A stretch of DNA of 37,681 bases from Escherichia phage T7. The notes below the pieces were generated by a model, which was given only the letters and a program-made list of their open reading frames with translations, had not been told where the DNA came from and did not search any database. Positions 1 through 37,681 of the stretch are shown in pieces. How positions within the stretch are numbered: the first letter of the stretch is position 1; the number at the start of each line of letters is the position of its first letter. Location of the stretch: the sequence record MZ375246.1. One strand, 5' to 3'. Made by a program: the position numbers and the translations under genes.

Positions 1-141
1 CTCACAGTGTACGGACCTAAAGTTCCCCCATAGGGGGTACCTAAAGCCCAGCCAATCACCTAAAGTCAACCTTCGGTTGACCTTGAGGGTTCCCTAAGGG
101 TTTGTCTTTGGGTGTTACCTTGAGTGTCTCTCTGTGTCCCT
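1..141. repeat. Left terminal direct repeat (TR); window begins one base inside the genome end
   Basis: 1..141 is identical to 37541..37681; sequence matches the T7 terminal repetition. Confidence 0.9.
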
Positions 142-7428: not shown

Positions 7429-8010
7429 TGGGACTGTTAGATGGTGAAGCCTGGGAAAAAGAAAACCCGCCAGTACAAGCAACTGGGTGTATAGCTTGCT
7501 TAGAGAAAGATGACCGTTATCCACACACCTGTAACAAAGGAGCTAACGATATGACCGAACGTGAACAAGAGATGATCATTAAGTTGATAGACAATAATGA
7601 AGGTCGCCCAGATGATTTGAATGGCTGCGGTATTCTCTGCTCCAATGTCCCTTGCCACCTCTGCCCCGCAAATAACGATCAAAAGATAACCTTAGGTGAA
7701 ATCCGAGCGATGGACCCACGTAAACCACATCTGAATAAACCTGAGGTAACTCCTACAGATGACCAGCCTTCCGCTGAGACAATCGAAGGTGTCACTAAGC
7801 CTTCCCACTACATGCTGTTTGACGACATTGAGGCTATCGAAGTGATTGCTCGTTCAATGACCGTTGAGCAGTTCAAGGGATACTGCTTCGGTAACATCTT
7901 AAAGTACAGACTACGTGCTGGTAAGAAGTCAGAGTTAGCGTACTTAGAGAAAGACCTAGCGAAAGCAGACTTCTATAAAGAACTCTTTGAGAAACATAAG
8001 GATAAATGTT

Positions 8011-10423: not shown

Positions 10424-12235
<1,812 letters not shown>

Positions 12236-12303: not shown

Positions 12304-14418
12304 ATGATCGTTTCTGACATCGAAGCTAACGCCCTCTTAGAGAGCGTCACTAAGTTCCACTGCGGGGTTATCTACGACTACTCCACCGCTGAGTACGTAA
12401 GCTACCGTCCGAGTGACTTCGGTGCGTATCTGGATGCGCTGGAAGCCGAGGTTGCACGAGGCGGTCTTATTGTGTTCCACAACGGTCACAAGTATGACGT
12501 TCCTGCATTGACCAAACTGGCAAAGTTGCAATTGAACCGAGAGTTCCACCTTCCTCGTGAGAACTGTATTGACACCCTTGTGTTGTCACGTTTGATTCAT
12601 TCCAACCTCAAGGACACCGATATGGGTCTTCTGCGTTCCGGCAAGTTGCCCGGAAAACGCTTTGGGTCTCACGCTTTGGAGGCGTGGGGTTATCGCTTAG
12701 GCGAGATGAAGGGTGAATACAAAGACGACTTTAAGCGTATGCTTGAAGAGCAGGGTGAAGAATACGTTGACGGAATGGAGTGGTGGAACTTCAACGAAGA
12801 GATGATGGACTATAACGTTCAGGACGTTGTGGTAACTAAAGCTCTCCTTGAGAAGCTACTCTCTGACAAACATTACTTCCCTCCTGAGATTGACTTTACG
12901 GACGTAGGATACACTACGTTCTGGTCAGAATCCCTTGAGGCCGTTGACATTGAACATCGTGCTGCATGGCTGCTCGCTAAACAAGAGCGCAACGGGTTCC
13001 CGTTTGACACAAAAGCAATCGAAGAGTTGTACGTAGAGTTAGCTGCTCGCCGCTCTGAGTTGCTCCGTAAATTGACCGAAACGTTCGGCTCGTGGTATCA
13101 GCCTAAAGGTGGCACTGAGATGTTCTGCCATCCGCGAACAGGTAAGCCACTACCTAAATACCCTCGCATTAAGACACCTAAAGTTGGTGGTATCTTTAAG
13201 AAGCCTAAGAACAAGGCACAGCGAGAAGGCCGTGAGCCTTGCGAACTTGATACCCGCGAGTACGTTGCTGGTGCTCCTTACACCCCAGTTGAACATGTTG
13301 TGTTTAACCCTTCGTCTCGTGACCACATTCAGAAGAAACTCCAAGAGGCTGGGTGGGTCCCGACCAAGTACACCGATAAGGGTGCTCCTGTGGTGGACGA
13401 TGAGGTACTCGAAGGAGTACGTGTAGATGACCCTGAGAAGCAAGCCGCTATCGACCTCATTAAAGAGTACTTGATGATTCAGAAGCGAATCGGACAGTCT
13501 GCTGAGGGAGACAAAGCATGGCTTCGTTATGTTGCTGAGGATGGTAAGATTCATGGTTCTGTTAACCCTAATGGAGCAGTTACGGGTCGTGCGACCCATG
13601 CGTTCCCAAACCTTGCGCAAATTCCGGGTGTACGTTCTCCTTATGGAGAGCAGTGTCGCGCTGCTTTTGGCGCTGAGCACCATTTGGATGGGATAACTGG
13701 TAAGCCTTGGGTTCAGGCTGGCATCGACGCATCCGGTCTTGAGCTACGCTGCTTGGCTCACTTCATGGCTCGCTTTGATAACGGCGAGTACGCTCACGAG
13801 ATTCTTAACGGCGACATCCACACTAAGAACCAGATAGCTGCTGAACTACCTACCCGAGATAACGCTAAGACGTTCATCTATGGGTTCCTCTATGGTGCTG
13901 GTGATGAGAAGATTGGACAGATTGTTGGTGCTGGTAAAGAGCGCGGTAAGGAACTCAAGAAGAAATTCCTTGAGAACACCCCCGCGATTGCAGCACTCCG
14001 CGAGTCTATCCAACAGACACTTGTCGAGTCCTCTCAATGGGTAGCTGGTGAGCAACAAGTCAAGTGGAAACGCCGCTGGATTAAAGGTCTGGATGGTCGT
14101 AAGGTACACGTTCGTAGTCCTCACGCTGCCTTGAATACCCTACTGCAATCTGCTGGTGCTCTCATCTGCAAACTGTGGATTATCAAGACCGAAGAGATGC
14201 TCGTAGAGAAAGGCTTGAAGCATGGCTGGGATGGGGACTTTGCGTACATGGCATGGGTACATGATGAAATCCAAGTAGGCTGCCGTACCGAAGAGATTGC
14301 TCAGGTGGTCATTGAGACCGCACAAGAAGCGATGCGCTGGGTTGGAGACCACTGGAACTTCCGGTGTCTTCTGGATACCGAAGGTAAGATGGGTCCTAAT
14401 TGGGCGATTTGCCACTGA
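12304..14418 (+). CDS. 5: DNA polymerase (gene 5)
   Basis: 704-aa [30 protein letters not shown]... Confidence 0.99.
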
Positions 14419-37162: not shown

Positions 37163-37185
37163 TAATACGACTCACTATAGGGAGA
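37163..37185 (+). promoter_or_regulatory. T7 promoter phiOR (associated with secondary origin)
   Basis: taatacgactcactatagggaga. Confidence 0.9.
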
Positions 37186-37339
37186 GGAGGGACGAAAGGT
37201 TACTATATAGATACTGAATGAATACTTATAGAGTGCATAAAGTATGCATAATGGTGTACCTAGAGTGACCTCTAAGAATGGTGATTATATTGTATTAGTA
37301 TCACCTTAACTTAAGGACCAACATAAAGGGAGGAGACTC

Positions 37340-37387
37340 ATGTTCCGCTTATTGTTGAACCTACTGCGGCATAGAGTCAAGTCCTAA
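37340..37387 (+). pseudogene. 19.5: Gene 19.5 remnant (MFRLLLNLLRH... then out-of-context tail; 15 codons)
   Basis: ATG with ggagga RBS at the expected position, but the ORF stops after 15 codons; offset arithmetic implies about 189 bp missing here. Confidence 0.55.
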
Positions 37388-37535
37388 GGTATACCCATAA
37401 AGAGCCTCTAATGGTCTATCCTAAGGTCTATACCTAAAGATAGGCCATCCTATCAGTGTCACCTAAAGAGGGTCTTAGAGAGGGCCTATGGAGTTCCTAT
37501 AGGGTCCTTTAAAATATACCATAAAAATCTGAGTG
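37385..37535 (+). repeat. Right-end short repeat array next to TR (CCTAAAG / CCTAAGG-type motifs)
   Basis: Repeated cctaaggt, acctaaag and cctatag motifs visible in the sequence. Confidence 0.65.
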
Positions 37536-37539
37536 ACTA

Positions 37540-37681
37540 TCTCACAGTGTACGGACCTAAAGTTCCCCCATAGGGGGTACCTAAAGCCCAGCCAATCACC
37601 TAAAGTCAACCTTCGGTTGACCTTGAGGGTTCCCTAAGGGTTTGTCTTTGGGTGTTACCTTGAGTGTCTCTCTGTGTCCCT
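37540..37681. repeat. Right terminal direct repeat (TR)
   Basis: 37541..37681 is identical to 1..141. Confidence 0.9.

Follow-up and report, generated by a model that had tools for sequence, protein, structure and literature searches.

A 189-bp deletion at a 9-bp direct repeat truncates gene 19.5 and removes a conserved hairpin in a genome-reduced derivative of phage T7

Near the right end of an Escherichia phage T7 genome of 37,681 nucleotides (MZ375246.1; we call this whole stretch the window), gene 19.5 breaks off shortly after its start. This raises the questions of what exactly was lost, how it was lost and whether the loss reaches beyond the gene. The original prediction, made from the letters alone, described an ORF at 37340 that has a good ribosome-binding site and the N-terminus of gp19.5 and ends after 15 codons, and it estimated by offset arithmetic that the region is about 189 bp shorter than in T7. 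Our translation of 37340-37387 agrees with this description, and in the alignment to NC_001604 the gap is exactly 189 bp long. Over 37340..37540, the window's sequence differs from that of reference T7 (NC_001604).

We compared the whole window with NC_001604 by BLAST and by global alignment. The two are colinear and >99.9% identical apart from six deletions and 12 substitutions. In total, 2,256 bp are lost relative to T7, and the first base of T7 is also absent. The deletions, in T7 coordinates with the window position in brackets, are:

99-116 and 39876-39893, 18 bp each: the same segment of each terminal repeat, as placed by the alignment
1341-1903 (window 1321/1322), 563 bp: genes 0.4-0.6
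7608-7763 (window 7025/7026), 156 bp: exactly the gene 1.4 coding sequence, without microhomology
11254-11545, 292 bp: within gene 3.8, without microhomology
13265-14283 (window 12234/12235), 1,019 bp: genes 4.3-4.7, at the 5-bp repeat ACAGG
39420-39608, equivalently 39429-39617 (window 37370/37380), 189 bp: most of gene 19.5 and DNA downstream of it

The gene 1.4 deletion looks like a designed edit because the coding sequence was removed exactly, and the 292-bp deletion in gene 3.8, with no microhomology at its edges, has the look of a designed one as well. The latter places the start codon of gene 3.8 in frame with gene 4A (window 10487-10534 corresponds to T7 11225-11253 joined to 11546-11564, and the 4A start lies at 11565). 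A primase/helicase with 16 extra N-terminal residues could be made from the gene 3.8 start, and the GenBank record of a sibling clone, MZ375254.1, annotates the gene 4A coding sequence from this upstream start. The deletion of genes 4.3-4.7 also takes out the promoters phi4.3 and phi4.7, and leaves the gene 4 stop codon intact.

A 9-bp direct repeat, ATAGAGTCA, flanks the 189-bp break on both sides (T7 39420-39428 and 39609-39617); its left copy sits in codons 11-14 of gene 19.5. One copy remains:

37371..37379, no strand: deletion junction, the single remaining ATAGAGTCA copy, with 189 bp of T7 gone

The alignment puts the gap after window position 37370, and the gap can slide 9 bp rightward because ATAGAGTCA is present at both edges. 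The lesion has the form of a microhomology deletion, with the repeat at both edges in the parent and one copy retained, and its 9 bases are the longest microhomology among the window's deletions. By our own arithmetic, about 0.3 repeats of 9 bp are expected by chance per 400 bp, and the repeat is unremarkable in itself. The lost DNA comprises 110 bp of gene 19.5 (codon 14 through the stop codon) and 79 bp 3′ of the stop, which bears out the expectation that the deletion runs past the ORF toward the right-end repeats.

Wild-type gene 19.5 occupies T7 39389-39538 and has 49 codons (NC_001604). Its ribosome-binding site and start are still present in the window at 37326-37342, where the sequence reads taaagggaggagactcATG with the ATG at 37340. 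The parts that remain are:

37326..37335, plus strand: gene 19.5 Shine-Dalgarno region, AAGGGAGGAG, identical to T7 and retained
37340..37387, plus strand: gene 19.5 remnant, MFRLLLNLLRHRVKS and then a stop; 13 native codons are followed by K, S and the stop (15 codons plus stop)

Wild-type gp19.5 matches PHROG 2193 (function not assigned) across residues 1-49 and, weakly, a holin PHROG (E = 0.03). Its hydrophobic peak at residues 17-31 and its match to Pfam PF17553 (DUF5465) at residues 31-49 are both absent from the remnant. The remnant also lacks the C-terminal residues 31-49 by which we recognize members of the gp19.5 family. With only 13 of 49 residues left, and neither the hydrophobic segment nor the conserved C-terminal region among them, gene 19.5 of the window is most likely null. 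In this loss of coding capacity, the window resembles the Δ(19.5-m) class of mutants. Published T7 work reported the gp19.5 changes A24D and E38G as compensations when the holin or the endolysin is disabled, and it suggests a secondary role of gp19.5 in lysis.

The surroundings of the gene are mostly preserved. The features of the right end, and the terminal repeat at the left end, are:

37163..37185, plus strand: promoter phiOR, TAATACGACTCACTATAGGGAGA, with its +1 at 37180; intact (phiOR at 39229 in NC_001604)
37380..37539, no strand: array of CCTAAAG-like short repeats (T7 39618-39777), without differences from T7
37540..37681, no strand: right terminal repeat, 142 bp versus 160 bp, with the 18-bp deletion (T7 39876-39893) at 37637/37638 between GGGTT repeats
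1..141, no strand: left terminal repeat, with the same 18-bp deletion (T7 99-116) at window 97-98; the first T7 base is absent

From the phiOR +1 (37180) to the right terminal repeat (37540), the distance is 360 bp in the window versus 549 bp in T7. It was correctly foreseen, then, that more than the gene is affected and that the spacing between phiOR and the repeats changes as well. The phage was isolated as a plaque-forming clone, and therefore no essential packaging signal was removed: the 19.5 deletion shortens the phiOR-repeat distance without such a loss.

The 79 bp deleted downstream of gene 19.5 wholly include an imperfect inverted repeat of 41 nt (T7 39568-39586 and 39590-39608, with a 3-nt loop). 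Folded as single-stranded DNA, this hairpin has an energy of -7.2 kcal/mol (z = -3.2 versus shuffles). Over the full 381-nt region, the predicted fold is not significant (z = -1.0); the local hairpin is the one element that stands out. Among close T7 relatives it differs at a single loop base (G/A), whereas the 19.5 coding sequence varies (protein identity 78-98%). When viral contigs were scanned for the pattern, 70 had the element, mostly contigs of about 40 kb; its 24 variants form three classes, and within a class they differ mostly in the loop.

Hairpins of the same architecture occur directly after gene 19.5 in T3-like phages (Teetrevirus), K11/KP32-like phages (Przondovirus), Berlinvirus and two further lineages (z from -2.6 to -4.1). 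The T7 and T3-like hairpins have identical dot-bracket structures, and all 15 of 15 base pairs are kept between them, 4 of these by changes on both sides; when the partners were slid by 1-3 columns as a control, 0 pairs were kept. This count uses the gap-free set of T7 and T3-like hairpins only, and the other lineages are backed by separate folds. A MAFFT alignment of hairpins across genera was left out of the pair counting, as it was not in structural register. Judged by these comparisons, the hairpin is conserved across Studiervirinae with compensatory base pairs. Directly 3′ of it lies a conserved TA(G/C)AGTCAA motif, which in T7 is the right copy of the deletion repeat. No other conserved hairpin lies between gene 19.5 and the repeat array, and the window has lost all of this one (T7 39568-39608).

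We take the hairpin to be the element called the M-hairpin (m) of T7 concatemer processing. Chung, Nardone and Hinkle are said to have mapped the M-hairpin, in 1990, about 190 bp to the left of the terminal repeat. The hairpin described here has its center at 39588; the right terminal repeat begins at 39778, 190 bp further right. A citing passage in Heineman et al. (2009) places m adjacent to gene 19.5. Our literature search for M-hairpin coordinates returned secondary citations only, primary papers being outside its reach. The hairpin is probably m, an identification that rests on the 190-bp position and on the citation of m as adjoining gene 19.5.

The window is not alone in carrying these lesions. 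Record MZ375254.1, titled “Mutant Escherichia phage T7 clone T7_110S”, has the same indel structure, including all deletions, and differs from the window by one base in length and by 8 substitutions (window positions 216, 4499, 8520, 17558, 21046, 30764, 30961 and 30970). Three of the substitutions are private to the window and five to MZ375254.1. Clones from transfer 170 on share two of the window-private alleles, both in gene 16 (30764 and 30961), which argues that the window is a genuine sibling or recombinant genotype, neither MZ375254.1 itself nor a corrupted copy. We also searched databases with a 39-mer centered on the 189-bp junction, for which wild-type T7 cannot supply a 28-base seed. 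It matched 41 phage records, all of them sibling clones within MZ375238-MZ375292, and no searched record outside the mutant clone series. With this distribution, the junction is evidently no chance feature.

A likely source for these records can be named. Yuan et al. (2022, Nucleic Acids Res, PMC9825161) applied CiPGr, a CRISPR/Cas9 iterative phage genome reduction, to T7. They sequenced 60 T7 clones, one large-plaque and one small-plaque clone per 10 transfers up to transfer 300, with names of the type T7_300L, and assembled the genomes de novo from short reads. Their designed edits removed a whole gene or 100 bp by means of 50-bp homology arms. Three “large fragment” losses were undesigned, namely gp0.3-0.6, gp4.3-4.7 and gp19.5, and the gp19.5 loss was also detected by population read mapping. 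All three regions are affected in the window. Because the clone names, the clone count and the set of deletions all agree, we infer with good support that the MZ3752xx records are the clones of Yuan et al. Our search of paper text found none that names the accession numbers or the clone name.

The “gp19.5” loss of CiPGr, as represented by MZ375254.1, has the same junction as the window and the same companion deletions (0.4-0.6, 1.4, 3.8, 4.3-4.7 and 18 bp of the terminal repeat). PMC9825161, unlike the present account, is silent on the repeat at the junction and on the hairpin, and the words “hairpin”, “intergenic” and “non-coding” are absent from its main text. We are confident that the window is a laboratory genome-reduced T7 derivative of the clone series MZ375233-MZ375294, and that its lesion is an undesigned deletion at the 9-bp repeat with the consequences given here. 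The lesion is real and ordinary, and was already deposited and published.

Other changes of the window are shared within the series. With the 18-bp deletion in the terminal repeats, the small inverted repeat AAGGGT...ACCCTT loses its 3′ arm, ACCCTT. Many sibling clones have this 18-bp deletion whether or not gene 19.5 is deleted; 80L and 100S, for instance, carry it and keep gene 19.5. At window 142 (T7 161), the first base after the left terminal repeat, an A-to-C change turns ATCTGTT into CTCTGTT in 25 records, all of the clone series. The motif ATCTGTT is presumably the seven-base class II pause/termination motif for T7 RNA polymerase at the concatemer junction; what we could confirm is the existence of a strictly conserved seven-base motif. 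In a transposon study, positions 142 and 162 were the only essential sites near the left end. At window 386 (T7 405), an A-to-G change at the +1 of phiOL converts TATAAGGAGA to the consensus TATAGGGAGA. It occurs in 43 records, all of the series and from transfer 30 onward, and probably strengthens the promoter.

How did the 189-bp deletion arise? Its junction points to an undesigned event, either recombination or slipped mispairing between the ATAGAGTCA copies; a single remaining copy is what slipped mispairing or single-strand annealing leaves behind. A hairpin-forming inverted repeat beside one copy of a direct repeat is reported to promote such deletions. Spontaneous T7 deletions between short direct repeats were reportedly described by Studier et al. 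in 1979 and by Pierce, Kong and Masker in 1991. The window's deletion is like these in having a perfect short repeat at both ends, of which one copy is retained, and in that the lost segment holds a hairpin-forming inverted repeat beside one of the copies. It is unlike them in that the initial lesion may have been a break made by Cas9. Cas9 probably helped: if it cut within gene 19.5 and the ends were then resected and annealed through the 9-bp repeat, exactly this product would result.

Such a deletion would also remove most gene 19.5 protospacers, given the many NGG sites in the deleted part of the gene. It may then have been retained by escape from gene 19.5 spacers, by inactivation of the hairpin or by both. 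The consequences are twofold: gene 19.5 is most likely null, and the conserved hairpin is gone, with phiOR brought 189 bp closer to the terminal repeat. As phiOR, the short-repeat array and the terminal repeat remain, the phage would be viable. The likely cost is weaker growth with small plaques, as in the Δ19.5-m mutant of 1996. Cas9 pressure on gene 19.5 was not strong, because large-plaque clones keep an unmutated 19.5 coding sequence up to transfer 170.

The sibling clones that keep the segment bear on what was selected. All 14 available clones of this kind from transfers 30-170 carry 1-3 substitutions at paired positions of the hairpin. The substitutions lie at 39572, 39590, 39591, 39592, 39596 and 39606 and make up at least five alleles:

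30L: C39606A
40L: A39572G + A39590T + C39592G
50L: A39590T + C39592G
70L: C39596T
60L, 80L, 100L, 100S, 110L, 130L, 140L, 150L, 160L and 170L: T39591C

Every one of these substitutions weakens the stem, and the six positions are invariant in natural T7-like relatives. The 150-bp coding sequence of gene 19.5 has no change in any of the 14 clones, and the earlier clone 20S has no change in the segment. From transfer 30, all 55 of the 55 available clones are either hairpin-less (41, by the deletion described here) or stem-weakened (14).

We listed all NGG and NAG sites on both strands of the region. None provides a protospacer for T39591C, the commonest allele, or for A39590T + C39592G; a single minus-strand protospacer, 39599-39618, could account for C39596T and C39606A. 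With two alleles lacking a matching site, we rejected Cas9 escape as a full explanation of the substitutions. Templated correction, in which substitutions perfect a quasi-palindrome, was rejected too, as the observed effect is the opposite and all changes are at paired positions. Candidate causes are selection against hairpins, a hidden Cas9 target, and palindrome-stimulated mutation with hitch-hiking.

The same clones have other lesions in small palindromes of the terminal repeat:

T7 39803-39815: CCCCCATAGGGGG
T7 39840-39862: AAAGTCAACC/GGTTGACCTT
T7 39874-39893: AAGGGT/ACCCTT, removed by the window's 18-bp deletion

These data suggest a different account of why the deletion rose in the series. 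It may have done so mainly by destroying the hairpin (m), and not through loss of gene 19.5 or escape from Cas9, in which case the target of selection would be the hairpin or its 3′-arm sequence, and the deletion would be one of several inactivating alleles. In favor of this are the hits at paired positions in every segment-keeping clone of transfers 30-170, the untouched 19.5 coding sequence, the invariance of the substituted positions in nature, and the two alleles for which no NGG protospacer exists. However, five of the six positions are in the 3′ arm, which hints at a sequence-specific rather than a structural cause. Moreover, C39596T and C39606A could be escapes from the minus-strand site 39599-39618, and the clones with the full deletion are the weaker growers. 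We know of no mechanism that would make loss of the hairpin beneficial. On balance, we regard this account as possible but somewhat doubtful.

It is quite improbable that the deletion is a designed CiPGr edit, made by a Cas9 cut and a plasmid homology template. Gene 19.5 is non-essential and among the targetable genes, and other deletions of the window that lack microhomology (gene 1.4 and the 292 bp in 3.8) do look designed. However, the 189-bp deletion is neither exactly one gene nor 100 bp joined by 50-bp arms, and its edges do not coincide with the boundaries of gene 19.5: it begins inside the gene, ends 79 bp past it and lies on a 9-bp repeat. In addition, gp19.5 is one of the losses that the authors did not design (PMC9825161).

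Still harder to credit is an artefact of assembly, caused by a short repeat close to the end of the genome. The genomes were assembled de novo from short reads, and repeats near ends are error-prone, but a 9-bp repeat is far shorter than a read. Separate assemblies of 41 clones gave the same junction, and 14 other clones of the series lack it; the junction persists over time, is fixed from transfer 180 and was seen in population read mapping (PMC9825161). Least credible of all is a natural polymorphism of a wild T7-like phage without full gene 19.5: the region does differ among natural relatives, such as KP32 with its extended 19.5 ORF, but among the records searched the junction occurs only in the mutant series, the gene and the hairpin are kept in all natural relatives examined, and the window is >99.9% identical to T7 elsewhere and has an exact engineered loss of gene 1.4.

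An undesigned deletion at the 9-bp repeat during the reduction experiment is the reading we prefer, and plaque types indicate what it may have cost. The plaque type of a clone follows from its accession order, with odd numbers for L and even numbers for S every 10 transfers (233 = 10L ... 292 = 300S), a rule that we checked on 18 records. The closest record, MZ375254.1, is a plaque-purified clone named “S” for small plaque. At transfers 30-170, the deletion is present in 13 of 14 available small-plaque clones versus 2 of 15 large-plaque clones (Fisher p = 2e-5), in counts that leave out MZ375246, the expected clone 70S. From transfer 180 onward, all clones of both types have it. The association with plaque size is confounded by other differences between the clones, and it agrees with the small plaques of the 1996 mutant.

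That mutant, Δ(19.5-m), was reported by Kim and Chung (Virology 1996, 216:20) and analyzed by Kim, Kim and Chung (Virology 1997, 236:37). It has lost gene 19.5 and the neighboring M-hairpin region, as the window has lost gene 19.5 and the presumed M-hairpin. Heineman et al. (2009), citing Kim and Chung 1996, describe late lysis and small plaques for a T7 that lacks gene 19.5 together with the M-hairpin next to it. As cited, the mutant is viable, with poor growth, small plaques and late lysis, and in the window's series the deletion is associated with small-plaque clones. Unlike the window's lesion, the Δ(19.5-m) mutant was deliberately built, whereas the deletion studied here is spontaneous, falls on a 9-bp repeat, leaves codons 1-13 in place and is accompanied by five other deletions in the genome. 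By analogy, the window's lesion would be functionally equivalent to the 1996 Δ19.5-m mutant.

Since the lesion comes from a laboratory mutant that is already deposited and published, and since gene 19.5 and m were known to be dispensable as early as 1996, its value as a discovery is small. Its value for annotation lies in the junction, the 9-bp repeat and the loss of a conserved cis-element, which are absent from the source paper. Beyond the literature we examined, only three points are added here: where exactly the junction lies, that covariation supports the hairpin, and that sibling clones have parallel lesions in it. The features of the lesion missing from the source paper may explain part of the poor growth of genome-reduced T7 clones, and the parallel lesions in the siblings could serve as a genetic handle on the role of the M-hairpin in concatemer processing. 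We tentatively raise the idea, to which we give less than even weight, that this evolution experiment strongly selected for inactivation of the presumed M-hairpin itself. If that is true, and neither a hidden Cas9 target nor a mutational hot spot lies behind the pattern, an element that is conserved in Studiervirinae and thought to act in terminal-repeat duplication would be dispensable, and even costly, under some laboratory conditions.
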